64,000 nt of DNA from IMG/VR virus record IMGVR_UViG_3300049855_000239, positions 1 to 64,000 of that record; one strand, 5' to 3'. Below are positions 2,407 through 17,060 of this stretch, one piece after another. Each line of letters begins with the position of its first letter. The stretch's first letter is position 1. The notes beneath the pieces are model-generated. The model did not search any database. It was not told where the DNA came from and saw only the letters and a program-made list of their open reading frames with translations. The DNA is from a virus. The position numbers and the translations under genes are program-made.

Positions 2407-2466
2407 GCAACTACGTATTATATATTCAAAGCTCATGGTGCCATTGCTTATACACGACCGTTAGCG
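2401..2466 (+). repeat. partial attC-like element (left TAAC arm missing), left edge of array
   Basis: TATAAGCAA...TTGCTTATA stem followed by CACGACC-GTTAGCG. Confidence 0.6.
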
Positions 2467-2700
2467 AATAGTTTTAAAACGGCAATGCGTTATTTCTTGA
2501 AGTGGCCAATCATCATCGTTATACATTCTTGTTTCACCAGTTGAGAATTTTACTTCAACATCTTCATAATTAGCTTCTGATAGTTTTTTAGAAAGCTCCT
2601 TTCTTTTTTCATCATTTACTGTATAATCAAAAACAAACCATTCGCTAACGTTGTGTTCAAGCTGTTGTGGCGTTTCTTGGGTGTTGCTATTTTTTTCCAT
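2461..2700 (-). CDS. cassette protein with hairpin-encoded leader (MEKNSNTQETPQQLEHNVSE...)
   Basis: ATG at 2700 lies inside hairpin 2643-2774; stop TAA is supplied by the GTTA arm at 2460. Confidence 0.6.
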   Translation of the reverse strand: MEKNSNTQETPQQLEHNVSEWFVFDYTVNDEKRKELSKKLSEANYEDVEVKFSTGETRMYNDDDWPLQEITHCRFKTIR

Positions 2701-2774
2701 TTTACTATCAGTTTTTCGGTGGATACATTTTCGACATTTCATGCCACAAAAGCATGAACACTTCCTTGTTATAT
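2643..2774 (+). repeat. attC-like hairpin
   Basis: CGCTAAC..GTGTTCAAGCTGTTGTGGC / GCCACAAAAGCATGAACAC..GTTATAT; central CGGTGGATA. Confidence 0.8.
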
Positions 2775-2862
2775 GCAATGCTAAAATTTCCTTCGGGATT
2801 TTCTAGCATCTTTTCTACACTAGCCACGTCTCCGTTCAGCCACCGCAAGCCCAAATGCGTGT

Positions 2863-2959
2863 CGTTAGCAGAAACTATAAACGTGGCATTTTCCAGCACC
2901 TATACGCAAGCTTCGTTCCTCAGCTATGCGCATAGCTTTAGCGTTAGCAGAAACTATAA
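2863..2959 (+). repeat. 18-bp direct repeat CGTTAGCAGAAACTATAA (2863-2880 and 2942-2959), duplicated cassette arm
   Basis: exact repeat read from sequence. Confidence 0.85.
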
Positions 2960-3287
2960 GAAACCACAGCCTTCCGATTTATAAGGTCATCGACTGTTAT
3001 TCCCAAGTAACGAGAAATAAGTACTATTTCTTCAAGGTTTGGAACTCCACCCCAATTCATCATTCGATGCTTGACATGATTTAAGAATAGATTCAACGAA
3101 CAATTCGTGGTGTGTTTGACCCTTTTCTGCTCTTTCTATTGCCTCATTGGCTTGCTGTATAGCATTAATAGTATTTGGGTGCATAATTTAATTAGTTATT
3201 TTTTTACATAGTCATGAATAAATAATAGTGTTCTGCTAACATCTAATTCTGAATTAATGTGAGTTCGTGTTACTAGTGCGTTCATAA

Positions 3288-3536
3288 TTACCAAGGAGTT
3301 TCGGGTTGATCTTCATAAATTACTATTGGATTTGGATCTAAAATTATATGCTGTTTTAGTTGTTTTACAGACCACCACTCGCCATTTAATCGGTATCGTT
3401 TAGGTGGCTGAATCTTTACTTCATGCCACCCGTACGATCTTTTTTTTCTAGTAAATGGCTTTTTGTAAATCTTTTTATCACTTCCAACTATATAATCTTT
3501 TAGCGATTCAAGTTTAAATTTCCATTTGCTATTCAT
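3288..3536 (-). CDS. hypothetical basic protein
   Basis: 82-aa ORF with a TATATTTG promoter box immediately upstream (3541-3548, minus strand). Confidence 0.6.
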   Translation of the reverse strand: MNSKWKFKLESLKDYIVGSDKKIYKKPFTRKKRSYGWHEVKIQPPKRYRLNGEWWSVKQLKQHIILDPNPIVIYEDQPETPW

Positions 3537-3654
3537 AATACAAATATACCACTTTTAACCATACATGCAAATAGATTTAGCACTTTTGGTATTTTTTTAT
3601 TCGTCAACACTAATGTTATGGGCAACCGTAGAAGCCTAGCGGTCGCCCAGTTTA

Positions 3655-4098
3655 CTAGTCGAGAATGCACCAATCTTCCGAAATACAATCGTTGACACTT
3701 GGAACCCATGTACTGACAGTTCCGTCTACATTTTTGATTGCCAAATAAGGATTGTAGTAAACTTTTCCATCTTCATCTGCAATAGACTTACCTATATCGG
3801 TAGAGAATGGATAACGATTTGCAGGGATAAAGTAAACAAACATACCTTTTCCGTTCCAACCTTTTCTAGCAACTTTTTTACCAAGTTTCAACGCTTCCAA
3901 CGCTAATCCAAACGTTAATTCACTTATGTTTCTATATGCTTTTTCAAACACATCTTTTGGACTCCATGAAATATAACCATCTTCATAAACGACTTTGTAG
4001 CCTTCTTCTCCAGCGACAACCTTTCCCGATTCATCGGAGAACTCTTTCGCATCCATTGGAGTTGCGACAATTAATTTGACACCAATATACTTTTCCAT
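3655..4098 (-). CDS. DUF2829-domain phage protein
   Basis: YIGVK...GYKVVYEDGYISWSPKDVFEKAY plus TFGLALEALKLGKKVARKGWNGKGMF...WVPSVND..EDW. Confidence 0.85.
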   Translation of the reverse strand: MEKYIGVKLIVATPMDAKEFSDESGKVVAGEEGYKVVYEDGYISWSPKDVFEKAYRNISELTFGLALEALKLGKKVARKGWNGKGMFVYFIPANRYPFSTDIGKSIADEDGKVYYNPYLAIKNVDGTVSTWVPSVNDCISEDWCILD

Positions 4099-4158
4099 TT
4101 TATTTGTTGGGTTTTATAACTCCGCCCAGAAGTTTATCGGTTGACAAAAAACGGCAGC

Positions 4159-4290
4159 CCATAACACTATATTTATGTAACAGGTGGCGTTTTTGGTTAT
4201 TTTCACTTTATTGCTCCCAGCTTATGTTTTGGCGGTGGATAGCTACGTCTTCGCTCATGCCACCTATTGCATAAATACCTAGCGTTAGCG
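4159..4290 (+). repeat. attC-like hairpin
   Basis: CCATAAC-ACTA-TATTTATGTAACAGGTGGC / GCCACCTATTGCATAAATA-CCTAGC-GTTAGCG; central CGGTGGATA. Confidence 0.85.
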
Positions 4291-4296
4291 GAAAGT

Positions 4297-4509
4297 CTAA
4301 GAAGTGACTGGTAAATCGACCGACATTGTAAAAATCGAGAATTTTCCGTTTTCTGAATGACTTTCAGCTTCTTCTCTATTTTCAAAAACTGGTAGAAATC
4401 CGTAAAGACCGCCTAGTTTATCCGAACAAGGAAGTCCAGTAATCGGATTTGTATATTCTATCATGGTTGATAATTTTGATACCATGAAAAGCTCTTTTTT
4501 GTTTGACAT
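4297..4509 (-). CDS. hypothetical cassette protein
   Basis: ORF inside segment 4284-4755. Confidence 0.6.
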   Translation of the reverse strand: MSNKKELFMVSKLSTMIEYTNPITGLPCSDKLGGLYGFLPVFENREEAESHSENGKFSIFTMSVDLPVTS

Positions 4510-4511
4510 AG

Positions 4512-4712
4512 TTAAACGATTTGAGATTCAATTATAGGTTCTTTTGTTTCATGTGGTGGATATCCACGAAACGACACCATTATCATTTTGAAGAAATGAA
4601 AGAAAATTCTAACGATTCCATTAACAACGAAATAAAGAACCATTGCGATAATGCAGTACGAGCCAACGAAGACCCAAAAACTGCTAACTGTAAATTTTAA
4701 TAATTCTAACAT
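4512..4712 (-). CDS. small membrane protein (cassette)
   Basis: hydrophobic 66-aa ORF inside segment 4284-4755. Confidence 0.6.
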   Translation of the reverse strand: MLELLKFTVSSFWVFVGSYCIIAMVLYFVVNGIVRIFFHFFKMIMVSFRGYPPHETKEPIIESQIV

Positions 4713-4748
4713 TTTGATAAATTTATACGTGAAGAAAAAAGACTATTC

Positions 4749-4878
4749 CGCTAACACTGTGCTTATGAAATTTTGGGGCTTTACTGTTTTGGATGGCGTT
4801 TTGCCCTCACGTAGTTCCCAGCGGTGGAGACTTTCGTCTCCATAAATCCCCAAATTTCAGAAGCACTTAGCGTTAGCA
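4749..4878 (+). repeat. attC-like hairpin
   Basis: CGCTAAC-ACT-GTGCTTATGAAATTTTGGGG / CCCCAAATTTCAGAAGCAC-TTAGC-GTTAGCA; central CGGTGGAGA. Confidence 0.85.
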
Positions 4879-4884
4879 GTAAAT

Positions 4885-5256
4885 TTAAGAGAGTCCAAAT
4901 ACTCTCATTAGATTACTGAATAATAATTCCTTTATTGTATCAAAATTTTCTTGCCCTTTTTTTAATGATAAATATTCTGGAGTCCAAAATCCATTATTAT
5001 TACCGTCATAAACTCTTATTTCTGTTTGTGAATATGCTATTTCAAAACATAAATTACGGTCTGGCCTCATACCATAGCTTCCAAAAACGATAGAAACCTG
5101 TTGCCCAAAATAAGAACCATCTCCATCATAGCTTATATCGCACGTTTCTAATTTAGGAAGCATTTTACTAAACTCTTCTATAAAATCAGGGTCATTACAC
5201 GGCTTTATGCCATCTATTTGTTTCCAGTTACTGATGTATTCACTTAATATTTTCAT
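4885..5256 (-). CDS. hypothetical cassette protein
   Basis: single ORF filling segment 4872-5296. Confidence 0.7.
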   Translation of the reverse strand: MKILSEYISNWKQIDGIKPCNDPDFIEEFSKMLPKLETCDISYDGDGSYFGQQVSIVFGSYGMRPDRNLCFEIAYSQTEIRVYDGNNNGFWTPEYLSLKKGQENFDTIKELLFSNLMRVFGLS

Positions 5257-5289
5257 TTTTGAATAATTTAACGGTTAAAAAAAATCTAC

Positions 5290-5420
5290 TGCTAACACTG
5301 TATTTTCGCATTTTCGGGGCTTGCTGGTAGTTCTAGCTTCACACCGTTAGGCTAGTTCACCAGCGGGGGATACAGCCGTCTTCGTCACTCCCGAAATTGC
5401 GTAAATACCGTTCGTTAGGT
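5290..5420 (+). repeat. attC-like hairpin
   Basis: TGCTAAC-ACT-GTATTTTCGCATTTTCGGG / CCCGAAATTGCGTAAATAC-CGTTC-GTTAGGT; central CGGGGGATA. Confidence 0.85.
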
Positions 5421-5426
5421 GCAATG

Positions 5427-6571
5427 CTAAGAAGGTTCTTGGATATAGCTAAGTATATGAGCAATCACATCTACTGTCCATCCATCACCCAAAAGACAAG
5501 CCGCTTCATTACGTTTTAATATGCTTGTGTACCCTTCCGGTACCGTTTGAAGCCTTTCAAGTTCTGTTTGTGTGAAATATCTCAAATCGCCATCCTGAAA
5601 TACAAAATACTCGTTATTTCGTAAAAGGCAATTAGATTTATCTTTCATCGAACGTCCTCTCCTAGTCTCGCTTGTTGGATAGCTTAAATCTACGGCTTCA
5701 TTATTTGCAATGTCTACAAAGCCTATATTGGTAGCTTCTTTTACTCTCAAATAGGTTTCCTTGTCTTTTGTAATTAATGTCGTAAAGCCACTATTAAAAA
5801 CCGATGCGCCATTTTATGTTGTTGTTTCAATGGTCGGCTTTCGCTTTCCAAAATGCAACGGCTCTTTTCCATTTGAACAAATCCACTTTCCAAAATAGAT
5901 TGTAGTTTTATTTTCTTGTCTTTTGGTTCAGGTATTCTACAATATCTAAATCCAAATAGGTCGAATGATTCCGGACCTATGTTTGTCCAATAAAATCTAT
6001 TCCTCATTTGAGCCGAAACCAATTCACTATTTATGTTCACTGGATATGTTCCCATGTACTGGCTTATCAGTTCCATATTTTTATCGGTCATGGCTACATT
6101 TTCCAATAGAAAATATTTTGGCTTTAGTGCTTTTAGAAGTCTCAAATACTCAAAAAACAATCCTGATTTTTCGCCTTGCAATCCTTTGCGTTCTTTGTTT
6201 GCTAAACTAAAATCTTGGCATGGGCTACCTCCAATTAATAAATCGATCTTTGGTAGGTTTTCAGGTTGTATATTTCTTATGTCTCCTAGCTGTATTGTAT
6301 TCGGGTAGTTGTGTTGTGTTACTTTTATTGCGTGTGCTTTTATCTCACTTGCATAGTATTGTCCGTACTTTATTCCGGCTTTATTTAAGGCAATTTGTCC
6401 GCAACTCATACCATCAAACAAAGAAAGCACTGCACCTAACACAAGCTTTGAATTATGCAAGGGTGTACTGGTTATTTGGGCTTCACACATATCAGATAAT
6501 TTTCCATAGTTTATACTTTTTGGCGGTTCAGCCTTGCACAATACAAAGCCATTGTCGTTAGTAGTAATCAT
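5427..6571 (-). pseudogene. C5 DNA cytosine methyltransferase split by a 1-nt frameshift (ORFs 5774-6571 and 5427-5750)
   Basis: motifs VLSLFDGMSCG, GGSPCQ, LLENV, RNR in first ORF; ELERLQTVP...LGDGWTVDVI in second; frames join at the T5 run 5796-5800. Confidence 0.8.
6434..6563 (+). repeat. attC-like hairpin (translated as the N-terminus of the methyltransferase ORF)
   Basis: ACCTAAC-ACAA-GCTTTGAATTATGCAAGG / CCTTGCACAATACAAAGC-CATTGTC-GTTAGTA; central GGCGGTTCA. Confidence 0.85.
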
Positions 6572-6819
6572 AAAACGTCCTCGGCATAGCCATACTTTTG
6601 AAGGTAAGGTAATAGCTTTTTGAATTGCTTTTCAGTAATTACATCTGACTTAAATAGATTGGTCATGTAGTTTCTATTTTTGCCTATTTCCCTTGAAAAT
6701 TCAGACAATGAAATAGCTGGATGCAATTGGAAGAAATTATATACGCTTTGAAATGTACGTAGGTGATCAAATATTTTATTTCCCATTTTATGCCCAATAA
6801 AAGTTAATAGCTTGTCCAT
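6568..6819 (-). CDS. small HTH-like DNA-binding protein
   Basis: ISLSEFSREIGKNRNYMTNL resembles a helix-turn-helix. Confidence 0.5.
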   Translation of the reverse strand: MDKLLTFIGHKMGNKIFDHLRTFQSVYNFFQLHPAISLSEFSREIGKNRNYMTNLFKSDVITEKQFKKLLPYLQKYGYAEDVL

Positions 6820-6932
6820 CTTTGCCTTTTCGAAGTTTTTTGTTTAGTAGGCGTTTTATTTTCTTTTTTAACTTCCTGTTTTTTCGCTTGTTTTTTGTAA
6901 GCTTACATTGTTCGCATGTGCAAATAAATATT

Positions 6933-7232
6933 TTACAAGGCATGTTTTTTGTTTTTTAGGTTATCTAGCCTTATTCTTGCGCTACCTTTTAGTGTTGCAT
7001 TTATTGTCCTAGCTTCTTCTTCTAATCTTAAAACAACAGGTTCAAGCTCATTTATTTGCTCATCTATCGTTTTGTCTGTTTTCAAAAGCAAATCTTTAGC
7101 CTTAATACATGCCAAAGCTCCTCGTGTCCATAATTTACTTTCAAAATTTTGACTTATTATTCCTTGCTTTTCAAGTTCAAGTAAGAGGATTTGCTGCCTC
7201 TTACCTGATCCTTTTGTTATAGAGTTTCGCAT
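6933..7232 (-). CDS. hypothetical protein
   Basis: ORF in segment 6557-7533. Confidence 0.55.
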   Translation of the reverse strand: MRNSITKGSGKRQQILLLELEKQGIISQNFESKLWTRGALACIKAKDLLLKTDKTIDEQINELEPVVLRLEEEARTINATLKGSARIRLDNLKNKKHAL

Positions 7233-7411
7233 AGTTCTATAAATTCCTTTTCTGGCAATCTGTTCATTAAAATTTCCAATGCAGCATCAGAAATTAAATC
7301 AGCACCATCAGATAAATTATTAGCTAGTTTTTTTATTTCCATAATCAAATCGGAAGTAGAAAGAGCGTTTAATTTGCTTATTGCGATATTTTTAAATTCT
7401 TGCGTTGTCAT
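7217..7411 (-). CDS. hypothetical protein (start MTTQEF)
   Basis: ATG preceded by TACCTTTG promoter box at ~7433-7440 on minus strand. Confidence 0.6.
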   Translation of the reverse strand: MTTQEFKNIAISKLNALSTSDLIMEIKKLANNLSDGADLISDAALEILMNRLPEKEFIELCETL

Positions 7412-7526
7412 GTCCTTGTCGTTTTGTTGAATCAAAGGTAACATAAAAATTGCAAACTGCAATATATTATTATCACAATTTGCAATATTTTTTAGTCTAC
7501 CATCAGCGGACAAAGAAAATGACTAC

Positions 7527-7579
7527 TACTAACACTGTATATACGCCATTAAAACGGGCGTATATACCTAGCGTTAGGC
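7527..7579 (+). repeat. minimal (53 bp) attC-like hairpin
   Basis: TACTAAC-ACT-GTATATACGCC-ATTAAAACG-GGCGTATATAC-CTAGC-GTTAGGC. Confidence 0.9.
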
Positions 7580-7774
7580 GATATTTTTAGAAGCCTTAAA
7601 CCGTACTAACAACTGACTAAATATCATGTCTGTATCGGTTGTTTTAACTGGAACGCTCATATGAAATGAATTACCTCCACTATGACACATTTTACTTAAC
7701 TCCTCGGTAGCAATTTTTACCAGTTCTTCATCTGGCATTTCTGCCTGTAATTGTCTAAATTCTTCTATGCTCAT
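7574..7774 (-). CDS. hypothetical cassette protein
   Basis: fills segment 7573-7821; stop codon supplied by the GTTA arm. Confidence 0.7.
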   Translation of the reverse strand: MSIEEFRQLQAEMPDEELVKIATEELSKMCHSGGNSFHMSVPVKTTDTDMIFSQLLVRFKASKNIA

Positions 7775-7814
7775 TTTGATATTGGTTACGGTTTGATAAA
7801 TAAATAAAACAATC

Positions 7815-7943
7815 GCCTAACATGATATTTAGTCATTTAAGGGCGTTCTGGGATCGGTTCTGTACTCGCATTAGTTGGCGTCCCACGGCGGATAGTTTCG
7901 TCTCTGTCACTCCCTTAAAAGCCCAAATACATGTTCGTTAGCT
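7815..7943 (+). repeat. attC-like hairpin (near-copy of 17061-17190)
   Basis: GCCTAAC-ATGATATTTAGTCATTTAAGGG / CCCTTAAAAGCCCAAATACATGTTC-GTTAGCT. Confidence 0.85.
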
Positions 7944-8016
7944 GCAACTATAATAATCACAACAACTCGACATTTATGTCAAATATACTATCTTTATACT
8001 TTATAATACTAAAGAT

Positions 8017-8862
8017 ATGCTAATAAATTACGGAGGAGAATTTCCTTTCAAAATGACCGACTTGTATGACAAGCTTGAACTTAGTCCGTCACAGTATAAT
8101 AGATGGACTAAAGCCAATCTACTAGAGTCATTTTATATAGAACTTGACTATGAGGCGGTACTCGACATGATGTCGAGTACCCCAAAAGGCGGTAAACTAA
8201 GACAAGAATACAGACTAACAAGACGTACTGCAGAAGAACTTGCGCTTCTATCTCGAACACAAAAGGGGAAAGAACTAAGAAAGTGGCTACTTGACTTAAA
8301 GGACAAAGTTGAGTCTAATGAATTATTAACATTAGAACAAGTCTATTTCTTAATTGACTTAGTTAATGCGTTTTCTTTTGTTGCACATCAAAAAGCAATT
8401 GAAGAATCACATAAACAATCATTTATAAACAACTATATTGATGAATACGGCAAAGTAAATATATCTGAAATATGTTCTAAGTTTAATTATTTAAGAAATG
8501 AGATTTTGGATATTTCGCCAGACATAATAAAAGAACGGATATTAAGATTTTATGATGAGGAAAAGCGACTTGTAAATAAGAAAACGAAACGAGAAGTACT
8601 TGCTGTTATTGATAAGTTTTCTTTAGTAGGAAATGCAGCATTTGACTTCATGGCATCTATTCAAAAACCATTAGACACAGCATCTAAAGTTGGAGAGATG
8701 GTAAAAGGAATGGCAACTAGATTAAATATTGAGATTAGAGACAAAAATGAGGCAGATCTTTTTAATGATGAGATTAAACTAAATCCAACAATCATGCAGA
8801 AAGTAAATCCATTTATAGGCAAGCCAAAACTTGATCCTAAAATCACAAAAAAACTAAAATAG
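8017..8862 (+). CDS. AntA/AntB-type antirepressor domain protein
   Basis: DLYDKLEL..QYNRW...DY....GGKLRQEYRLT...AEELALLSRTQKGKELRKWL. Confidence 0.75.
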   Translation: MLINYGGEFPFKMTDLYDKLELSPSQYNRWTKANLLESFYIELDYEAVLDMMSSTPKGGKLRQEYRLTRRTAEELALLSRTQKGKELRKWLLDLKDKVESNELLTLEQVYFLIDLVNAFSFVAHQKAIEESHKQSFINNYIDEYGKVNISEICSKFNYLRNEILDISPDIIKERILRFYDEEKRLVNKKTKREVLAVIDKFSLVGNAAFDFMASIQKPLDTASKVGEMVKGMATRLNIEIRDKNEADLFNDEIKLNPTIMQKVNPFIGKPKLDPKITKKLK

Positions 8863-8866
8863 CTGC

Positions 8867-8996
8867 AGCTAACACAGTATTTAAGAAACCTAGGGCTATA
8901 TGAATTATTATTCATTATTCACATTTCATTAGTTTTTAGCGGTGGAGAATTTCGTCTCCGTCAATCCCTAAGTTTCTTAAATACATTGCGTTAGCG
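8867..8996 (+). repeat. attC-like hairpin
   Basis: AGCTAAC-ACA-GTATTTAAGAAACCTAGGG / CCCTAAGTTTCTTAAATAC-ATTGC-GTTAGCG; central CGGTGGAGA. Confidence 0.85.
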
Positions 8997-9632
8997 GAAA
9001 CCGTGAGGACATTCAACACGATCGAAACTGTAAACCCAAACCCACGGATTTAGATCCCAACTATCATTTCCATTAATTTTTTGCCAAAGCGACCTATAAG
9101 ACCTTTGGGCATTTGAACACCATACCGATGGGTCTTTATTGGTATAGCATACAAAATTTCTTGGACTAAATCTGCAATTCTCGACACCTTCGCTTATCGC
9201 ATCTATTTCTGAAATGTCGTTTAGCCTTTCGACTCTAACATTTGTAACTTTTAGAAATAACCGACAAGCCTCTTTTGGCATAAATAGGCTTGGTTTCCAT
9301 TTAGCAGACTCACAGCCAGATTTTATATATTCTTGTCTTAATTCTTCTCCTGAACTCCCTGTATCTGCCCTGTAATGCCAATAATTACGATGATACGTAT
9401 GTGTTTCTCTGACCCAAATAATATCACCAATTTTGACTGGCGATTTCGATAAAGTTTCATCCCAATTTCCTAACGGAACATTATCTTTCAAAGTTCGTCT
9501 TGTTTGGGTCTTGCTTCCATTTAATAATGCTCTGACCATCAGAGTTGAAAAAAGCATCGGTCTAAAAACGGCATCCGCTAACACTGTATTTGATAAATCA
9601 GGGGCGGTATTGGCTTTGGTTGCTGTATTCAT
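8991..9632 (-). CDS. ASCH/PUA-like phage protein with hairpin-encoded leader MNTATKANTAPDLSNTVLAD
   Basis: RPMLFST.MVRALL.G.KTQTRR, GD.IWVRET, WKPSLFMP..ACR, VRVERL..ISE.DA..EG, W..NPWVWV. Confidence 0.8.
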   Translation of the reverse strand: MNTATKANTAPDLSNTVLADAVFRPMLFSTLMVRALLNGSKTQTRRTLKDNVPLGNWDETLSKSPVKIGDIIWVRETHTYHRNYWHYRADTGSSGEELRQEYIKSGCESAKWKPSLFMPKEACRLFLKVTNVRVERLNDISEIDAISEGVENCRFSPRNFVCYTNKDPSVWCSNAQRSYRSLWQKINGNDSWDLNPWVWVYSFDRVECPHGFR

Positions 9633-9706
9633 TTTAGTTTCTATTTTTACGGTGGAGAGTTCCGCCTCCGTCACTCCCTAGTTTTCTTGAACACCTGTCG
9701 TTATAT
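9576..9706 (+). repeat. attC-like hairpin (left ~60 bp identical to 11334-11464 element)
   Basis: CGCTAAC-ACTGTATTTGATAAATCAGGGG...CGGTGGAGA...CCTGTC-GTTATAT. Confidence 0.85.
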
Positions 9707-9735
9707 GATAGTTTAAAATAGCAGCACAAACATGT

Positions 9736-10185
9736 TTAATACTCATCAGGTGCTTTGTTTTTCCAACTACTTGAACTATTCTGCATACGCAAACCTCTTA
9801 AATATCTTGAAGCACATGCAAGTTCACACATCAAAATCCACGCTCTTTCGTTTGGAGAAGAAAAATTCTTTCGTCTTTTCATCTTGTTTTTTTCTTCCTC
9901 TGATAATGCTTCAAAAGCGACACATTCATCGTATCTACGTTCTAGTTCTTTCCAGCAGTCAATATATGGCATCCATTGCTTATGTTGAATCATTACCTTT
10001 TCAATTTGAGGTCTTAAATCAGGCAATTTTCTGAGCATCCTTACACATCGACCAACATCAGAAATATCATGCGGTACATCACATTCCCCAGTTGGTATTC
10101 CTGTAATAGCAGCAAACATTGTTTTTGAAGAAATGCCAGTATCTCTACTTGCTAACCATTCCATCCATTCTTTTTTAACTTCCAT
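9736..10185 (-). CDS. hypothetical cassette protein
   Basis: ORF filling segment 9700-10229; WL...DTGISSKT..P.D..D..RC motif recalls conserved phage hypotheticals. Confidence 0.7.
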   Translation of the reverse strand: MEVKKEWMEWLASRDTGISSKTMFAAITGIPTGECDVPHDISDVGRCVRMLRKLPDLRPQIEKVMIQHKQWMPYIDCWKELERRYDECVAFEALSEEEKNKMKRRKNFSSPNERAWILMCELACASRYLRGLRMQNSSSSWKNKAPDEY

Positions 10186-10222
10186 ATTATTAATTTATTG
10201 CGTTGTAAATAAAAAACCAATC

Positions 10223-10309
10223 ATATAACACTATGTTTCTGATATGGGCGATAAAGTACTGGTAGTTCGGAATTTCCGAATGCCCACATCAGAAACATTT
10301 ACGTTATGC
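10223..10309 (+). repeat. attC-like hairpin (87 bp)
   Basis: ATATAAC-ACT-ATGTTTCTGATATGGGC / GCCCACATCAGAAACAT-TTAC-GTTATGC. Confidence 0.85.
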
Positions 10310-10315
10310 ACAATG

Positions 10316-10582
10316 CTATAATGACGGCAATCCGAGCGAAGAACGTACTTTAGCTTCTGCCAGATTTTTGATAAAATCGCTATCTGAAAGAATCTCTTTT
10401 GCTTTTGCTGCAATCATTTCCTTGAAGTTTAATTCTTGCATTGCCTTATCTAGCCCTTCCCGTAATGCACCTTCTACACACCAATCTAATGCACTTTCAA
10501 AAGCATTTGCCTTATTGGACATAAAAGACTTTTGAAAGTATTCTGTCAATGCCCTTTGAATGTCAGGCATATGAGTTTGCAT
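10316..10582 (-). CDS. hypothetical cassette protein, possibly 5'-truncated
   Basis: ORF present but the matching TAAC arm is absent. Confidence 0.5.
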   Translation of the reverse strand: MQTHMPDIQRALTEYFQKSFMSNKANAFESALDWCVEGALREGLDKAMQELNFKEMIAAKAKEILSDSDFIKNLAEAKVRSSLGLPSL

Positions 10583-10610
10583 TATATTAGCTTCATTTGC
10601 ATTAGTTTAC

Positions 10611-10677
10611 TTTTTGTACGGTTGATACATTCGGCTTCGTTACTCCCGAAAAAGCGTGAATAAGTGTCTCGTTAGGC
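10611..10677 (+). repeat. right half of an attC-like element
   Basis: CGGTTGATAC...ACTCCCGAAAAAGCGTGAATA...C-GTTAGGC, similar to right half of 5290-5420. Confidence 0.7.
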
Positions 10678-10683
10678 GAAATA

Positions 10684-10848
10684 TTAAAAATCACCATCCT
10701 CTAACCCACGAATAACGAAACAAACGAAAGAATAGATTATTGACAAGATGCCACAAAAAAACAATACTTTCAAATGCCCTGTACTTGAAACATTAAAGCA
10801 TATAATTAACCCTAAGCCGATAATGAATAATTTGTCAATGATTTTCAT
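10684..10848 (-). CDS. small two-TM membrane protein (cassette)
   Basis: hydrophobic ORF filling segment 10671-10878. Confidence 0.55.
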   Translation of the reverse strand: MKIIDKLFIIGLGLIICFNVSSTGHLKVLFFCGILSIIYSFVCFVIRGLEDGDF

Positions 10849-10871
10849 GTTGATAAAATTAAAATACATTC

Positions 10872-11002
10872 GCCTAACACAGTACTTATAAAACTGTGGG
10901 CTTTTTTGGTTATTGTTACTTTACTGCGCTCCACTCGCTTTTTTGCGGTGGATAGTGGCGTGGTCTTAAATCCCACAGCTTTAAAAGTACGTGCCGTTAC
11001 CT
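10872..11002 (+). repeat. attC-like hairpin (near-copy of 15319-15449)
   Basis: GCCTAAC-ACA-GTACTTATAAAACTGTGGG / CCCACAGCTTTAAAAGTAC-GTGCC-GTTACCT; central CGGTGGATA. Confidence 0.85.
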
Positions 11003-11003
11003 G

Positions 11004-11390
11004 CTATTTTGCAGACGAGTACCATTCAAATTCCTCATCCATTAATTGATAAGTTGTTTTCGCTTTACCACATTGCAAATCTTTTAAATAAGCAACGCAT
11101 CTTTGTTTAGGTGTCGGTTGTTGATAATTTTCATTTTTACCATCATTTACAGGATAAACCATATAGGTTGTTGCAATATTTTCAAACCAATCAAAAAGCT
11201 TTCCACCACCTAAATCAAATAAATGTCCGAATAAGCAATTTTTACCATCTTTTGTTTTTACTATATCTGTACACCAACTTTCCTCCGTTGTATTTTCCAT
11301 GTAAGTAATAATCACATCTAAAGAAAAAACAGCAGGTAACACTGTATTTGATAAATCAGGGGCGGTATTGGCTTTGGTTGCTGTATTCAT
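11004..11390 (-). CDS. hypothetical cassette protein with hairpin-encoded leader MNTATKANTAPDLSNTVLP
   Basis: first 18 aa identical to leader of 8991-9632 although the rest is unrelated. Confidence 0.75.
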   Translation of the reverse strand: MNTATKANTAPDLSNTVLPAVFSLDVIITYMENTTEESWCTDIVKTKDGKNCLFGHLFDLGGGKLFDWFENIATTYMVYPVNDGKNENYQQPTPKQRCVAYLKDLQCGKAKTTYQLMDEEFEWYSSAK

Positions 11391-11464
11391 TTTAGTTATT
11401 GTTTTTACGGTAGATAAATTCGGCTTCGAAAAGCCCCTGTTTTCTCAAATACTTAGCGTTAGCT
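11334..11464 (+). repeat. attC-like hairpin
   Basis: AGGTAAC-ACT-GTATTTGATAAATCAGGGGC / GCCCCTGTTTTCTCAAATAC-TTAGC-GTTAGCT. Confidence 0.85.
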
Positions 11465-11465
11465 G

Positions 11466-11801
11466 CTATACTAACTGACGCCAAGTTTTACCACTATTGA
11501 ATATTGGGCTTTTTTCGTCAACTAAATTAAGCTTACCAATTAGTTCATGTGCTTGTTGTTTTGATATTTTGCATTTGCCATAATTATCGGAATCATAAAC
11601 TTTTACAAGAGTATATTCATCATTCCACTGGCTTATACTCCAGAAATTATTATCCCACAGTTTTACACATTTATCAATATCGACTTTGCAAGATACTGTA
11701 TTTGGAAATGTCAAAAGCACCTCTGTTAAAATAACAGTACAGCAGCTAACACTATGTTCTCGAACTTGTGGCGTTTTTTCAATCTTGATATTATTTTTCA
11801 T
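11466..11801 (-). CDS. hypothetical cassette protein with hairpin-encoded leader (MKNNIKIEKTPQVREHSVSC)
   Basis: no ATG inside segment 11458-11750 in this frame; nearest ATG is within the hairpin. Confidence 0.6.
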   Translation of the reverse strand: MKNNIKIEKTPQVREHSVSCCTVILTEVLLTFPNTVSCKVDIDKCVKLWDNNFWSISQWNDEYTLVKVYDSDNYGKCKISKQQAHELIGKLNLVDEKSPIFNSGKTWRQLV

Positions 11802-11875
11802 GTCATTTACATTTTTACGGGTGATACTTTCGTGGACTTTACATGCCACAACTTCGTGAACATTTAGCGTTAGTT
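11744..11875 (+). repeat. attC-like hairpin
   Basis: AGCTAAC-ACT-ATGTTCTCGAACTTGTGGC / GCCACAACTTCGTGAACAT-TTAGC-GTTAGTT. Confidence 0.85.
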
Positions 11876-12286
11876 TCAATCTTGTAAAACGAGTTCTTCG
11901 CCAACAAGAGCAAAATATAAGTTCTGTAACTGGTGTACAAATTCAATCAATCTTAAACATGTACCTCGAAACCAAAATTCATTTCCAATAAAATATATGT
12001 CATGATTTTCATCAAAATACCACATCTCGAAATCTTCTGAAATAAATCCAAACCGTTTCTTCCAGTTATTATCTAATGATATAGGGATAATTTCAACCAA
12101 ATTACCATCCTTTATATGATATTCAACATGAAGGATGTTTTCTGGATGAGCAAATATATGAACTTCATCATCTCTAATTTCGACAACATTAAAATGACAG
12201 TTAATATATTCTTCCTCTTCTAATTCTTTCTTAACTTCTTCGTTTATGAAGACAATATTCCCAAATCTTAACTCATTTACTTTCAT
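11876..12286 (-). CDS. conserved Bacteroidota phage hypothetical protein
   Basis: M..NELR.GN.V ... PI.L..... FGF ... VHQLQNLYFAL.GEEL pattern. Confidence 0.75.
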   Translation of the reverse strand: MKVNELRFGNIVFINEEVKKELEEEEYINCHFNVVEIRDDEVHIFAHPENILHVEYHIKDGNLVEIIPISLDNNWKKRFGFISEDFEMWYFDENHDIYFIGNEFWFRGTCLRLIEFVHQLQNLYFALVGEELVLQD

Positions 12287-12313
12287 GGTTTTATGGTTAC
12301 GGTTGACAAAAAA

Positions 12314-12372
12314 AAGACTAAAACTACGGTGGATTTATTCGGCTTCGAAAAGCCCCTGTTTTCTCAAATACT
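12314..12372 (+). repeat. collapsed attC-like element
   Basis: arm AAGACTAAAACTA fused directly to CGGTGGA, then TTCGGCTTCGAAAAGCCCCTGTTTTCTCAAATACT identical to 11419-11453. Confidence 0.7.
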
Positions 12373-12468
12373 CTTTAAATACAGTGCAAATGTAGCATTT
12401 AAATAATCTAAAAAAAATATTATTTTGATTTTTTATTTATCTTTTTAGTGCTTACATTTGTTCCACTA
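12372..12468. repeat. 97-bp inverted repeat copy 1, divergent promoter pair
   Basis: reverse complement of 17890-17986; TACATTTG box near each end facing outward. Confidence 0.9.
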
Positions 12469-12650
12469 CATTTGTGGCATATTAAGACAACGATTATGAC
12501 AGTAAAATTTAAAACAGTCCCTACAACCTTATTGGTTATTTTTTTAATTGACCACATAAGCCAATCATTTACAAGTCACGTTACTAATTATCCTTATTGG
12601 GTTGTTTTGATTTTGTTTATGATATATTCAAAATTTGACTAAATAAGATT

Positions 12651-13016
12651 ATGAATTTACAACTATCATTAATTAATAGGTGGTTTATAAAAACCGAAAT
12701 AGGCGAGAAATTAGAGGACTATCGGGAACTAACGCCTTATTGGTATGCTAGATTATGTTTGTATGATGGCAAAAAACAACCTAAAAGTTTTTGGGAATTT
12801 GCGCCAAGAACTAGCTTTAATTTTGATTCTAATAAAGTTACGTTTAAGAAATTCGAAGCAAACATTATGACATTAGGCTATCCTAAATCAACCGACACAG
12901 ATCGAATACTAAAATATAAACACGCTGGAATTGAAATAAGAACTGGTAATCCTAATTGGGGCGCAGAAGAAGGTAAATTATACTTTGTAATCAAGCATGG
13001 AGAAAAGATACGGTAA
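12651..13016 (+). CDS. ASCH-domain protein
   Basis: L.L.L...WF.....GEK.EDYR...PYW..RL; GY; G.P.WGAE.GK.YFVI. Confidence 0.75.
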   Translation: MNLQLSLINRWFIKTEIGEKLEDYRELTPYWYARLCLYDGKKQPKSFWEFAPRTSFNFDSNKVTFKKFEANIMTLGYPKSTDTDRILKYKHAGIEIRTGNPNWGAEEGKLYFVIKHGEKIR

Positions 13017-13635
13017 TTGCGTATGTCACAATAGATATTCTAGTTTGAATGCTAAAGGTCTATGTCCAGAAGGCGCACGTGAGCGACATAAAAAGAGTGC
13101 CGAAAGTAAAGGATTTAAAGTAAAAGAATATGGAATTGATAGAAACACCAAAACAGAGGCTATTCAGGATAAAGAGTTTAGTTTTGAAGGAAATGGAGTT
13201 AAGGGAGAAACTACTTTCAAAAAGGCCAAAATCAACCGTGTTTCTGAAAACAAGGCAAAAGAAAACGCAGAATTGGCAAGACTTAAAAAGGCAAAGATAT
13301 TAGAGTTAGGCGAAAAGTGCGAAATGTGTCCTAGACATGGAAGTGTTGATTTATTTCACATCATCGGAGTAGGGGATAAAACCCACGCTACTAATCCAAA
13401 AAACTTACTTCTTTCATGTCGCTGGTGCCATCTTATTTGGGGTGCAAACGACTTCGAAAAGATACTCAAATTCAATAATTTTGATGATATAATGAACCGA
13501 TTGAAAGATTTGGATTCTGGTAAATATTGGAAGTTTAGGCACAAGATAGAAAAGCATGTAATTGAAAAGTATTTCGAGACAAAAGACAAAACAGATATGA
13601 ATAGGCTAGGTATAAAATTTGTGAGTCCATTATGA
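12997..13635 (+). CDS. HNH-like (Zn-finger His-Me) nuclease domain protein
   Basis: CEMC...DLFHII...NLLLSCRWCH. Confidence 0.6.
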   Translation: MEKRYGNCVCHNRYSSLNAKGLCPEGARERHKKSAESKGFKVKEYGIDRNTKTEAIQDKEFSFEGNGVKGETTFKKAKINRVSENKAKENAELARLKKAKILELGEKCEMCPRHGSVDLFHIIGVGDKTHATNPKNLLLSCRWCHLIWGANDFEKILKFNNFDDIMNRLKDLDSGKYWKFRHKIEKHVIEKYFETKDKTDMNRLGIKFVSPL

Positions 13636-13958
13636 ACATTATTTTCATTTGTACTGCAAATAGGGATAGAAGCAGAACCGAAGAAATATATTTTCAAAAC
13701 AAATATCCTGAACATCGTTTTCGATCTGCTGGTATTAACAAGTATTTGAGCGAACGACACGGAGGTATTCACGTAAAAGCCTACATGTTAGATATTGCTG
13801 ACCGTATTATTTGCGCTGAACATATTCATTCTGATTGGATAGTACGAAACATAAACAAAAAGTACCTAGATAAAATATAAGTATTAGAACTGGCCGATAC
13901 TGGTACTTTTATGAGCAAAAGTTTAATAGATCGATTAGAAAGTAAGTTTAAAATATGA
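13632..13958 (+). pseudogene. low-molecular-weight protein-tyrosine-phosphatase-like gene with in-frame TAA at 13878-13880
   Basis: IIFICTANRDRSRT P-loop (CX5R), SAG motif; frame continues after the stop as VLELADTGTFMSKSLIDRLESKF. Confidence 0.7.
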
Positions 13959-14305
13959 ACCACCCAGAAAGCGACTTACAAGCAAATTGTATAAAATGGT
14001 TTAGATACCAATACCCGCAACTAAAACTATGTTTGTTTAATGTGCCAAATGGATCAAAAAGAAGCAAGTCTCAACAAGCTATACTTAAAAAGGAAGGTGC
14101 TATTTCTGGAGTTTCTGACATTATTTTATTGGTGCCAAATAGCGAGTTCAATTCTTTATGTTTAGAAGCTAAGATTAAGCCTAATAAACAATCAGAATCG
14201 CAAATTGAATTCGAAAAGGCCGTTACTAATTTTGGTAATTGTTATAAGGTATTTTACTCATTTGAAGAGTTTAGAAGTATTGTTACTAGTTATTTATCTT
14301 CTTAG
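13955..14305 (+). CDS. VRR-NUC domain nuclease
   Basis: ESDLQ..CIKWFR.QYP, VPNG, EG...GVSDI, LEAK, QS.SQ..F. Confidence 0.85.
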   Translation: MNHPESDLQANCIKWFRYQYPQLKLCLFNVPNGSKRSKSQQAILKKEGAISGVSDIILLVPNSEFNSLCLEAKIKPNKQSESQIEFEKAVTNFGNCYKVFYSFEEFRSIVTSYLSS

Positions 14306-14352
14306 TTTATACTTGCTTTAGATTTGAAGTTCATGTTTAAGAAATAGTATTA

Positions 14353-14382
14353 CCACAGCTTTATAAGTACGTGCCGTTATAA
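14353..14382 (+). repeat. right end of an attC-like element
   Basis: CCACAGCTTTATAAGTACGTGCCGTTA identical to 15420-15446. Confidence 0.75.
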
Positions 14383-14388
14383 GCCATT

Positions 14389-14760
14389 TTAAGAAGCAGA
14401 TTCATAATAAAGATTTTTACCTCCTAATTGATAGTAGCAATCAAGAAGGGATTTTTTGGCTTCTTCTTTTATCCATTCTGTCTTGTGACCTAGATATGCT
14501 ACATCAATATCTATCCATAATATTTCGGGTAGTTTAGCCCATATATTTTCATTATCTAATAACTCTTTTGCAAAACGTCCCATTCCATCCCAACTTTTAG
14601 TTTTTTCGTTGGTTTTTAATTCATCTGCACTTTTTATAGGTAATTCCAAATCCTCGCCTATATGGTTTGCTACTTTATAAATCTCAAACACTTCTTGATG
14701 TATTTGAATACAGTTTGACCTCATTGTGTCAAAATCAATTATTGGTTTTTTACTTTCCAT
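14389..14760 (-). CDS. hypothetical cassette protein
   Basis: fills segment 14376-14813. Confidence 0.7.
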   Translation of the reverse strand: MESKKPIIDFDTMRSNCIQIHQEVFEIYKVANHIGEDLELPIKSADELKTNEKTKSWDGMGRFAKELLDNENIWAKLPEILWIDIDVAYLGHKTEWIKEEAKKSLLDCYYQLGGKNLYYESAS

Positions 14761-14806
14761 GTTTTAATTAAATTAAATTGTTATAATTAGTGCAAATAAA
14801 AACGGC

Positions 14807-14936
14807 TTATAACGTTGTATTTTCGCACTTAATGGCATTCTGGTTTACATCACTTCACTTGCATTCATTCAGGCTACTACAGTGGATAAATTCGACTCTG
14901 TTCATCCATTAAATGCGTAAATAGTCTTCGTTAGGT
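14807..14936 (+). repeat. attC-like hairpin
   Basis: TTATAAC..TATTTTCGCACTTAATGG / CCATTAAATGCGTAAATA..C-GTTAGGT; central CAGTGGATA. Confidence 0.85.
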
Positions 14937-14942
14937 GAAAAA

Positions 14943-15320
14943 CTAAGAGTCAAGGCAAGTTCTAACCTTTGCTCTTAATTCAGCTCCTTTTGGGTCGTTT
15001 TCTAAATGTGAACTGACTTCTTCGAGTAAGTCAATCATTTCCTTTATCCATTTTGGATGTTCTAAAATTTCAGATTCTTTGTCTTGATAATTGTCTAATA
15101 AAATGCCCAAATTTAACGGAACTATAAAAGATCTGTCAGGTATTTTTTTAGCCACATCAGCAATTTCTTCATTTGCTCGTGTGGTATCATATCCATCATT
15201 TTCTTTTATAATTTCTTCAAGTGAGTTAAGATATTCTCTTACTTCGTTCAGTTCTTTTTCGGTGCATTTTGCGACCGTTAATTGTTTTACTACAGTTGGC
15301 ATAATCAAGAAGTTCTTCAC
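14943..15320 (-). CDS. hypothetical cassette protein
   Basis: fills segment 14930-15325. Confidence 0.7.
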   Translation of the reverse strand: MKNFLIMPTVVKQLTVAKCTEKELNEVREYLNSLEEIIKENDGYDTTRANEEIADVAKKIPDRSFIVPLNLGILLDNYQDKESEILEHPKWIKEMIDLLEEVSSHLENDPKGAELRAKVRTCLDS

Positions 15321-15449
15321 CTAACACAGTACTTATAAAACTGTGGGTTTTTTGGGTTGTTGTTACATTTTTGCGCTCCACTCACTTTTTGGCGGTGGAT
15401 AGTGGCGTGGTCATTACTCCCACAGCTTTATAAGTACGTGCCGTTAGCG
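15319..15449 (+). repeat. attC-like hairpin
   Basis: ACCTAAC-ACA-GTACTTATAAAACTGTGGG / CCCACAGCTTTATAAGTAC-GTGCC-GTTAGCG. Confidence 0.85.
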
Positions 15450-15455
15450 GAAACC

Positions 15456-15719
15456 TTAAAACCTTCTAGGCATTTTAAGGTAATCGCAACAAAAGTTTGA
15501 TACAACTTCAAATGTTGATTGAAGTTTGCTTTTGCCAATTTCATTTGGTTTTTGAGCAACAACACCGCTTCCATCATCAAATTTGGTTATCATTATTCCT
15601 CCACATGTAATACTGAATTGATATTCCTCCCCTTTTTCTTTGTCAGTAGGGAGGTTTTCTATTTTTTCAATTACTGGCATCAGTAAATCCATACTTTCAT
15701 TAAAAGCAAGTTTGCCCAT
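15456..15719 (-). CDS. hypothetical protein, probably 5'-truncated cassette
   Basis: F..S.D.LMPVIEKIE pattern typical of a phage family C-terminal half; no matching TAAC arm. Confidence 0.5.
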   Translation of the reverse strand: MGKLAFNESMDLLMPVIEKIENLPTDKEKGEEYQFSITCGGIMITKFDDGSGVVAQKPNEIGKSKLQSTFEVVSNFCCDYLKMPRRF

Positions 15720-15849
15720 GTGTCCATTTCTGGTTAACGCTTTGAATCAAATAGCAAGTGGCTTTTATTTATTCCCATCCTATTCAATCGGTTCATTTTA
15801 ATTGAGACTCCAATCTTTACATTGGCTCAAATAAAGGCTAAAAATGACA

Positions 15850-15886
15850 AAAGCCTAGATCTCGGGGGGAGCAATCTAGGCTTTTA
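15850..15886. terminator. intrinsic terminator hairpin, bidirectional A/T tails
   Basis: AAAAGCCTAGAT-CTCGGGGGGAGCA-ATCTAGGCTTTT. Confidence 0.7.
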
Positions 15887-15992
15887 TTTAAAAAACTGGC
15901 TTGGTATTCACTTCTGCCATTATCTTTAATTGTGCTAATTATTCCCCCGAACAATCACAGTGTAAAATTACAAATAATTTCTAAATTGCAAT

Positions 15993-16508
15993 ATGAACGC
16001 AAAAATAAATAAAATATTGGCCGAAGTTGGCAAGGTAGTGGTAATAGTAGCAGGCTTCTATTTATTATTATGTTTGTACGATTGCACCCGAACTAAACAA
16101 AAGCCTATCAAGGGTAAAGAAAAGGTAGTAAAGCAAACGCATACCCAAAAGGCCGATACGGTATTAGTTCATGATACATTACTGGTCTATTCAAAGCCTA
16201 AAACAATAATCAAGTGGAAATATAAACCTATCGAATTCGAGAGGTTTAACTATTGCGATTCGACTACTATTCAAACCGACACAATAACCAAGGAAGGCGT
16301 AAAAGTTGCGATACTAGACACTATTAGAAACAATTCAGTAGTAGGGAGGCAAACGCAAATTATTAGCGCAAATCAAATAATAACCAATACGTCAATAGAT
16401 TCAATTTTTACCGTTCGAGTTGACACGATTTATGTTAGGAAAAACAACGGGATGCTTTGTGCTACATGCTTTGGTGCTGGATTTGTTTTAGGTAGTTTTA
16501 CAAAATAA
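15993..16508 (+). CDS. membrane-anchored protein, possibly spanin-like
   Basis: N-terminal TM ending in Cys, repeated DT-rich beta segments, C-terminal GAGFVLG hydrophobic tail. Confidence 0.45.
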   Translation: MNAKINKILAEVGKVVVIVAGFYLLLCLYDCTRTKQKPIKGKEKVVKQTHTQKADTVLVHDTLLVYSKPKTIIKWKYKPIEFERFNYCDSTTIQTDTITKEGVKVAILDTIRNNSVVGRQTQIISANQIITNTSIDSIFTVRVDTIYVRKNNGMLCATCFGAGFVLGSFTK

Positions 16509-16530
16509 CTCAATCATTGTCTATAACGAA

Positions 16531-16570
16531 TTTCACTCCGAAAATAGTAACTTTTCGGAGTGAAGATTTT
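16531..16570 (+). terminator. intrinsic terminator
   Basis: TTCACTCCGAAAA-TAGTAAC-TTTTCGGAGTGAA followed by T run. Confidence 0.7.
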
Positions 16571-16684
16571 TTATATTATTGTAATCCGTGTTTTTGCGCT
16601 TCGCATAATTGGCTATCGTTTCTAGTCCTAAATACTTTCCAAGTAGTTCAATTTCATGACACGGATGTTATATGCTATAAAGCA

Positions 16685-17032
16685 TTACCACTTGTTATTT
16701 TTAATTAAATGTAGCAGGTATTCAAGCACTATATCTTGGACAATATTATCATATCGTTTTAGATATTTTCGTTTACTATTCAAATAAGATTTTACCTTAT
16801 TTTCTGCCCATTTTTCAGGATGAGAACTATAAAGAAGACTGTCAAAATCTAGCTTCAAAACTCTACAAATACCAAGCAATGTATATTCATCAGGTACACA
16901 TTCCCCTGATTCTATTTTAGAAATTGCTTGTTTTGTAACTTTTGCCATGCCACCAAGGCTTTCTTGTGTCATGTTTCTAGCCTTCCTAGCTTCTTTTATA
17001 ATGGTTGTTATTTCAACTTTTTCAGGAAACAT
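16685..17032 (-). CDS. XRE-family HTH transcriptional regulator
   Basis: IKEARKARNMTQESLG....VTKQAISKIESG...P. Confidence 0.85.
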   Translation of the reverse strand: MFPEKVEITTIIKEARKARNMTQESLGGMAKVTKQAISKIESGECVPDEYTLLGICRVLKLDFDSLLYSSHPEKWAENKVKSYLNSKRKYLKRYDNIVQDIVLEYLLHLIKNNKW

Positions 17033-17060
17033 AGTAAATAGGATTAAAATAAAACTTTGC

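Follow-up and report, generated by a model that had tools for sequence, protein, structure and literature searches.

A conserved non-Watson–Crick position in the extended R stem of integron-like cassettes from Cytophagales-order bacteria and their phages

The IMG/VR virus record IMGVR_UViG_3300049855_000239 (72.7 kb, 69% complete according to CheckV) carries within its first 64 kb a long array of small gene cassettes separated by attC-like elements, and this study concerns one position of these cassettes, position 11 of their outer arms, which lacks a Watson–Crick pair in every pair of our final sample. We refer to this stretch of 64,000 nucleotides as the window. Its proteins fit a tailed phage of Bacteroidota and include a crAss-type muzzle domain, a DnaB helicase and an SNF2–methylase fusion. 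The array (Table 1) begins with a GTTA preceded by only the final ∼15 nt of an element and ends with the GTTA of element 17064–17187. Small genes lie between the elements, the majority on the − strand, and among them are genes of a Tad2-like anti-defence protein, a C5 DNA methyltransferase and an AntA-domain protein. No tyrosine recombinase (PF00589) was found in any of six phage records, including the whole 72.7-kb record of the window, and because of this the phage arrays are integrase-less clusters. With 15 full and several partial elements and no nearby integron integrase, the window agrees with the definition of a cluster of attC sites lacking an integron integrase (CALIN; at least two attC sites); its sites are non-classical, and standard tools may fail to call them as such.

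A hidden Markov model (HMM) of the inner element, built from eleven clear copies, found these 15 full and several partial copies in one polarity and none elsewhere in the record. The element is ∼125 nt long, opens with TAAC, closes with GTTA and folds into an imperfect hairpin. Both ends, TAAC and GTTA, are unchanged in 14/14 aligned window elements, as expected of the core and inverse core of an attC site. In the consensus fold, compensatory double changes were seen at 13 of the 19 predicted pairs, and unpaired spacers of 4 and 6 nt are followed by a 5-bp conserved box and then by further stem, an arrangement that matches the unpaired central spacer and L box of attC. The consensus fold has no conserved bulge and no canonical extrahelical bases, only symmetric 1 × 1 mismatches, and the bulges in single-sequence folds were merely scattered. 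A second A·C (top strand) or G·T (bottom strand) pair lies just inside the R box in 23/29 elements. No Rfam family reached its gathering threshold anywhere in the window.

Outside the elements, the 15 nt that follow each GTTA (the right arm) are complementary to the 15 nt that precede the next TAAC (the left arm), i.e. across the cassette. In the clean cases a right arm and the next left arm matched at 10, 10, 10, 10, 10, 10 and 9 of 10 variable positions, and the two arms meeting at one junction matched at 4.1 of 10, against a background of 4.65. Arm sequences vary between cassettes yet covary within a cassette, and because of this transposon-like terminal repeats were excluded. As in attC sites, the box on the AAC side can thus pair with the beginning of the cassette to which it belongs; an all-against-all BLAST comparison, meant to place the expected crossover between G and TT, gave no arrays differing by one cassette. 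The 15-bp stem forms only from the ends of the same cassette, either in an excised circle or in a single strand folded across the gene, and therefore its conservation reports selection on folded single-stranded DNA.

Arm pairs are named here by the G of the right arm and the final C of the left arm, and positions are counted from that G. In the window, position 11 is A in 16/16 right arms defined by the element HMM alone, and also in the right arms without a full element (2460, 2943, 3615, 7573, 10303 and 14376). The first-pass annotation had listed eleven pairs in which this A faces C and had described the five remaining ones as 1-nt bulges. All eleven A·C pairs were found. The description of the other five stands in part: 4284/4755 does have the bulge, 10671/10878 has a bulge plus A·C, and 7573/7821 and 9700/10229 read as A·A when ungapped or as A·C with a 1-nt bulge, but 15443/17068 are not partners.

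We then considered a larger sample, using a pair finder that accepts GTT…AAC at a spacing of 120–3500 nt with at least 10/11 matches at positions 4–15, position 11 being ignored. The finder recovers the eleven window pairs together with 7573/7821 and 9700/10229, leaving 4284/4755 and 10671/10878 as the pairs that need a 1-nt bulge. Over 27 sources and 370 kb it returned 59 pairs, against 4–12 in five shuffles, and chance as the source of arm pairs is excluded. Pairs were kept if they were chained in arrays or had 11/11 matches, and were oriented by the strand of the element or of the recombinase described below. Eighteen candidates were dropped, ∼13 being of low complexity or isolated and 5 likely genuine and likewise A·C (3615; G001 4490, 5436 and 7520; L043 8751). 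This left 38 unique pairs, to which the window contributed 11, other phage contigs 6 and bacteria 21.

In this set position 11 is a Watson–Crick pair in 0/38, with A in the right arm in 38/38 and C (33) or A (5) opposite. GTT/AAC is present in all 38 pairs, and positions 1–10 and 12–15 are paired in 34–38 of the 38, figures that partly reflect the requirement for at least 10/11 matches. The stem stops after 15 bp, position 16 being paired in just 4/38. Other fixed bases are G8 (right) and C8 (left) in 35/38, T15 of the right arm in 38/38 and the T15/A15 pair in 37–38/38. The stem thus has the form GTTNNNNGNNANNNT with one obligatory non-pair, the right-arm consensus being GTTNNNNGNNANNNT followed by AA. 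Polarity is never reversed, with 0 cases of right-arm C and left-arm A in oriented arrays, and the non-pair is invariant over 18 contigs of phages and bacteria that differ in arm sequence and in inner element. Position 11 is therefore a conserved non-Watson–Crick position in a stem that continues the R box (GTT/AAC) to 15 bp, and it lies, as had been noted before, beyond the classical 7-nt R box. The mismatch had been called an invariant A/C; what is invariant is the right-arm A and the lack of a pair, and the base opposite varies. Its conservation beyond the window holds in other phages and in bacteria.

These counts bear on an explanation that the first-pass annotation had offered besides strand selection, namely that the defect is a scar of the mechanism that creates cassettes. 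The non-pair would then be a functionless mutational or mechanistic trace of cassette making or copying, left for example by site-specific deamination or by copying of a lesion. An A·C mismatch is what a transition on one arm would give. Nevertheless, a scar would have to persist over 18 contigs with unrelated arms and two families of inner element without being repaired to a pair in any of 38 cases, and the five A·A cases are impossible by transition. The pattern speaks for selection, and we regard a scar as highly improbable.

The larger sample came from several scans. In IMG/VR, pattern scans added seven phage contigs (two of them rated 100% complete) that carry arrays of 2–6 elements of the same family, and A11 is present in 17/17 HMM-defined right arms of these contigs, some of which are duplicates, making 33/33 with the window. 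Among genome contigs a first, strict pattern scan gave zero matches, and a second scan (one genome per species) gave one match, on a contig of a metagenome-assembled genome (MAG) titled Cytophagaceae bacterium, which has elements also on a 132-kb contig. An order-wide scan of 401 genomes yielded 15 with a match, a reversed-pattern control being about equally frequent; G212 had four matches, and the element HMM confirmed only G006, G212 and G073. The same arm pattern occurs in bacterial arrays whose inner elements escape the window HMM. Phages found through a neighbouring AAA_24 protein (L006–L008) had no such elements within 10 kb upstream, none of the Tad2-like relatives in other phages (80 of 557 loci) was flanked by such arms, with 4 chance-level matches, and the GenBank phage collection gave no DNA match to the array or to one element.

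In bacteria the arrays were found beside a recombinase. In five Cytophagales-order genomes (G212:C44, G057:C40, G105:C15, G263:C320 and G040:C37) an array begins 137–780 nt downstream of the gene of a tyrosine recombinase, or of this gene and an SSB gene, in the same orientation; in G212:C44 the enzyme has 391 residues, and its gene is followed on the same strand by a cassette start at ∼2815, a gene and an element. The other four contain chained arm pairs with the same A·C at position 11, and their elements are undetected by the window HMM. Homologues of the recombinase (E ≤ 1e-60) occur in 14/22 genomes of the family of G212. The bases before the first cassette arm, a candidate attI-like junction, resemble the 3′ half of an element in the five genomes. 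The sites thus belong to an integron-like cassette system of Cytophagales-order bacteria, with copies in some of their phages. An origin from HUH (Y1) transposases of the IS200/IS605 or REP/RAYT type was rejected, PF01797 being found in 0/5 phage records and the bacterial arrays being flanked by a tyrosine recombinase.

The recombinase has the domains Phage_int_SAM_4 and Phage_integrase, preceded by N-terminal extensions of about 80–280 residues that match no Pfam family. Against TIGR02249 it scores 186 bits (cut-off 265) in two pieces, with profile positions 179–234 skipped; it also scores with NF040815 and shares the C-terminal tail of IntI. When aligned with VchIntIA (2A3V), residues 139–293 correspond to chain residues 26–180 and residues 311–391 to 240–320, so that 17 residues replace VchIntIA 181–239, the 59 residues holding the IntI-specific insertion. 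A complete integron has an IntI with this insertion, and the enzyme beside the bacterial arrays lacks it. Judged from these alignments it is a non-classical recombinase related to integron integrases but without the IntI insertion, in keeping with the non-classical recombinase that had been postulated from the window. In GenBank phages, only integrases of 30–34% identity matched it.

In two genomes the recombinase is separated from the first cassette by an SSB gene, at L060 2479–2817 (Pfam E 7e-35) and L069 2091–2519 (2e-37), which is consistent with a single-strand reaction. A chromosomal cassette of the Cytophagaceae MAG (L043 8904–9992) encodes a Fic/DOC-family protein, and its neighbours encode a DUF2625 protein, a WYL-HTH regulator and a YdeI/OmdA protein.

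Such an enzyme could also act in another way, with the arms bound as double-stranded DNA and position 11, which is C or A in the left half-site and T in the right one in the same reading, serving as half-site asymmetry like that of XerC/XerD. Both arms have fixed bases at set distances (8, 11 and 15), the recombinase resembles Xer enzymes and is without the insertion that is linked to the recognition of single strands, and the attI-like junctions resemble the 3′ half of the element in duplex form. However, this explanation leaves unexplained the covariation of ten variable arm positions within a cassette, the ∼125-nt hairpin with its compensatory changes (13/19 pairs) and the SSB gene beside the recombinase, and we consider it unlikely.

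In the bacterial arrays genes are co-oriented with the + strand of the element in 9/9 intervals, and the window and most other phage arrays have their genes on the other strand; the polarity of the mismatch relative to the element is the same under both orientations, and therefore it is not a coding, stop-codon or mRNA feature. A Bacteroidetes promoter motif as the reason for A11 was rejected on reading the arms, and the pattern persists with genes on the other strand. Stop codons were rejected likewise: they fall at positions 2–4, 9–11, 12–14 or 14–16, and the pattern survives opposite genes. The same observation bears on a signal at the RNA level, in which a G·U pair on the phage coding (−) strand would belong to a stem closing each cistron and act in mRNA processing or stability. 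The majority of window cassettes have their genes on the − strand, on which the pair reads G·T, and G·U against A·C is the classical sign of a strand-specific RNA helix. Bacterial genes nevertheless lie on the other strand in the 9/9 intervals with the mismatch polarity unchanged, and no Rfam match was found, which makes an RNA signal very unlikely. As a separate observation, the phage cassettes form a pool inverted relative to site polarity (the window compared with L043, L050–L053 and G006:C3).

By integron convention the + strand is the top strand, because bacterial genes lie on it and the recombinase and attI-like junction are at the GTT-arm end. At position 11 the top strand then has A·C or A·A and the bottom strand T·G or T·T, and T·G and T·T disturb the helix less than A·C and A·A. 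The − strand gives the more stable arm duplex in 33/40 pairs, with an average difference of 1.1 kcal/mol, and the more stable whole hairpin in 10/11 window elements. The first-pass annotation had described an A·C mismatch on the + strand and a G·T wobble on the − strand; the two strands are indeed unequal, but the wobble does not extend to the 5/38 pairs that are A·A/T·T.

On balance we favour the possibility that the position-11 mismatch sets the choice of strand or orientation, a proposal that we infer from this strand asymmetry and rate as slightly more probable than its opposite. A recombinase bound to the R stem would read the non-pair as a strand and orientation mark, favouring the − strand of the window, and the mark would take over the job of the classical extrahelical bases and of the IntI insertion, both of which are missing here. 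It would act on the excised cassette, at insertion, and the phage, itself without a recombinase, would rely on that of its host. Fixed strand-asymmetric marks in this system are only three, the position-11 non-pair, the A·C inside the R box and the spacer. Tyrosine recombinases bind arms of 11–13 bp outward from the cleavage site, and positions 8–15 would lie under the N-terminal domain of the monomer cleaving between AA and C.

Several observations weigh against strand choice by this mark. The 15-bp stem cannot form at a junction inside the array, and therefore the mark could matter only for an excised cassette, at insertion. Recombinase homologues in G152 and G274 had no recognisable array in the 7–12 kb examined. 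The energy difference between strands is small (about 1 kcal/mol), the 5/38 A·A/T·T pairs are mismatched on both strands, so that the bottom-strand wobble is not universal, and in some pairs (4284/4755) a bulge on the other arm replaces the mismatch. Furthermore, on the + strand the spacer is 6 nt on the GTT side and 4 nt on the AAC side, and classical sites have their extra bases on the GTT arm of the bottom strand (PMC5027507), so that under this criterion the + strand has more in common with a bottom strand. Due to this conflict, the top/bottom assignment rests on gene orientation and on the positions of the recombinase and attI-like junction in bacteria, and it is not beyond doubt.

The variety of defects would also suit a structural role equal on both strands, with a hinge or stop 10 bp from the crossover that could bend the R stem, limit branch migration or protect a long palindrome from cutting or extrusion. 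A·C, A·A, a 1 × 2 loop and a bulge on the other arm all occur at one place, and the A·A/T·T cases are mismatched whichever strand is folded. Yet the right-arm base is always A (38/38; 33/33 of the HMM-defined arms) and polarity never flips, neither of which a hinge needs, and this role seems to us rather improbable, a shade below that of duplex half-sites.

Some further features of arms and elements were recorded. A recurrent sub-type of arm pair has a tandem mismatch at positions 10–11, with AA in the right arm against CA in the left arm (5′–3′), and occurs in unrelated cassettes (window 3615–4165 and 8990–9582, L053 2815 and pairs of G057:C40 and G040:C37). Both arms are A-rich on the + strand at positions 16–20 (A16 in 28/38 right and 33/38 left arms), and the stem ends in a conserved A·A juxtaposition, the right arms reading T15-A16-A17. 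An identical 16-nt right arm (window 10303; L001 ∼1030, reverse strand) precedes different sequence in two phages. Inner elements are 80–93% identical between cassettes with unrelated arms and genes (7817–7940 and 17063–17187; 10869–10999 and 15316–15446; 9572–9710 and 11330–11468), and on either side the similarity goes no further than TAAC or GTTA, a pattern that would suit exchange or homogenisation of the inner element without its arms.

Two inverted repeats were also noted. A near-identical phage contig, G005 (L003), has at 3928–4612, compared with L001 115–652, an inverted duplication joined exactly at GTTATG, where the GTTA of an element is fused to inverted GTTATGAA within a cassette gene; it is either secondary-site recombination or an assembly artefact. 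In the window, a 97-nt perfect inverted repeat lies at 12372–12468 and 17890–17986. Its left copy starts exactly at the end of a truncated element (12324–12372), with ∼2 kb of + strand genes (12448–14305) downstream, and the repeat may represent a promoter region present twice, the boundary of an inversion or a join made in assembly.

Table 1. Cassettes, arms and inner elements of the array in the window; for cassettes, the last column gives the state of position 11
Feature	Coordinates	Strand	Details
Cassette array	2460..17187	+	∼20 cassettes with attC-like elements between them, every element in + polarity
Cassette	2460..2649	+	arms 2460-2474 and 2635-2649; A 2470 opposite C 2639
Cassette with Tad2-like gene (− strand)	3615..4165	+	arms 3615-3629 and 4151-4165; A 3625 opposite C 4155; additional A·A mismatch at position 10
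Cassette	4284..4755	+	no mismatch; 1-nt left-arm bulge in the position-11 zone
Cassette	4872..5296	+	A 4882 opposite C 5286
Cassette with C5 DNA methyltransferase gene (− strand)	5414..6440	+	A 5424 opposite C 6430
Cassette	6557..7533	+	A 6567 opposite C 7523
Cassette	7573..7821	+	ungapped, A 7583 opposite A 7811 (2 × 2 internal loop); or A·C with 1-nt bulge
Cassette with AntA-domain gene (+ strand)	7937..8873	+	A 7947 opposite C 8863
Cassette	8990..9582	+	A 9000 opposite C 9572; A·A at position 10 too
Cassette	9700..10229	+	ungapped, A 9710 opposite A 10219; with 1-nt bulge, opposite C 10218
Cassette	10671..10878	+	right-arm A faces C plus one extra left-arm base (1 × 2 internal loop)
Cassette	10996..11340	+	A 11006 opposite C 11330
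Cassette	11458..11750	+	A 11468 opposite C 11740
Cassette	14376..14813	+	A 14386 opposite C 14803
Cassette	14930..15325	+	A 14940 opposite C 15315
Representative inner element, TAAC...GGTGGA...GTTA	4752..4875	+	124 nt, imperfect hairpin
Other elements	4162-4287, 5293-5417, 6437-6560, 7818-7940, 8870-8993, 9579-9703	+	123-126 nt
Other elements	10875-10999, 11337-11461, 11747-11872, 14810-14933, 15322-15446, 17064-17187	+	123-126 nt
Short element forms	7529-7576, 10226-10306	+	

Compared with known systems, the sites share with integron attC an imperfect hairpin between …AAC and GTT… with R box, unpaired spacer and L box, a length of ∼125 nt that falls inside the published 57–141 range, and an AAC-side box complementary to the start of its own cassette and not to the neighbour. 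The cassettes are compact and mostly of a single gene, and in bacteria a tyrosine recombinase stands at one end of the array. Unlike attC, the R stem has 15 bp instead of 7, bases are fixed at positions 8, 11 and 15, position 11 never forms a Watson–Crick pair, and the consensus fold has symmetric 1 × 1 mismatches and a 4-versus-6-nt spacer in place of clear extrahelical bases. Unlike in integrons, the recombinase has no IntI insertion and most phage genes run against the polarity of their sites. The system follows the cassette logic of integrons; its site anatomy and recombinase depart from the classical family in two of its defining traits. The literature describes a 7-nt R box, and in it, supplements not covered, we found no extended R stem and no fixed mismatch at position 11.

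In classical integrons the bottom strand is selected by unpaired features, chiefly by extrahelical bases close to the L box (PMC5027507, PMC7439510). A classical attC has 2–3 of these on one arm near L″, a G and then a T six base pairs on (PMC5027507); in the consensus fold of the sites studied here none are evident. The position-11 defect resembles these bases in being unpaired, at a fixed distance from the crossover, formed only in a folded single strand and different between strands (PMC5027507, PMC7439510). It differs from them in its place beyond the R box, on the side away from the loop, in being a mismatch and not a bulge, and in being formed by the two ends of the cassette, so that only excised cassettes have it. 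The recombinase found here lacks the protein element by which extrahelical bases are read in the classical system.

Attachment sites of the attC type have been reported from virulent and temperate phages without a phage integrase, methyltransferase cassettes being noted among them (Qi et al. 2023, PMC9892861). Those CALINs are short clusters (minimum two predicted sites), called with tools for classical attC and tested with IntI1 (PMC9892861); the present array differs in its ∼20 cassettes, its site family and its extended arms. The recombinase resembles the ‘Integron-like’ simple tyrosine recombinases, or XerA and Xer-like enzymes, in its TIGR02249 and NF040815 scores and in the IntI C-terminal tail (Smyshlyaev et al. 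2021, PMC8138268). For insertion-less members, the part of that paper used here describes no site or cassette array, and here they stand beside arrays; N-terminal extensions without a Pfam family also set the present enzymes apart.

Tentatively, and with somewhat less than even confidence, we suggest that these arrays represent a separate integron-like lineage, in which the recombinase never acquired or has lost the insertion, sites do without extrahelical bases, strand or orientation would be set by a mismatch 10 bp outside the crossover, and the host enzyme would be used in trans for phage arrays of inverted cassettes that include anti-defence genes.

Both the origin of integrase action on folded single strands and the choice of strand are usually explained by the IntI insertion together with extrahelical bases. 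If our proposal is true, a natural system with the same cassette logic chooses its strand with neither, and a single mismatch would be a simple, mutable and directly testable mark. Cassette arrays of this family would then escape tools tuned to classical attC and IntI, and some phages would hold large exchangeable stores of small genes, counter-defence genes included, by using the recombination system of their hosts.

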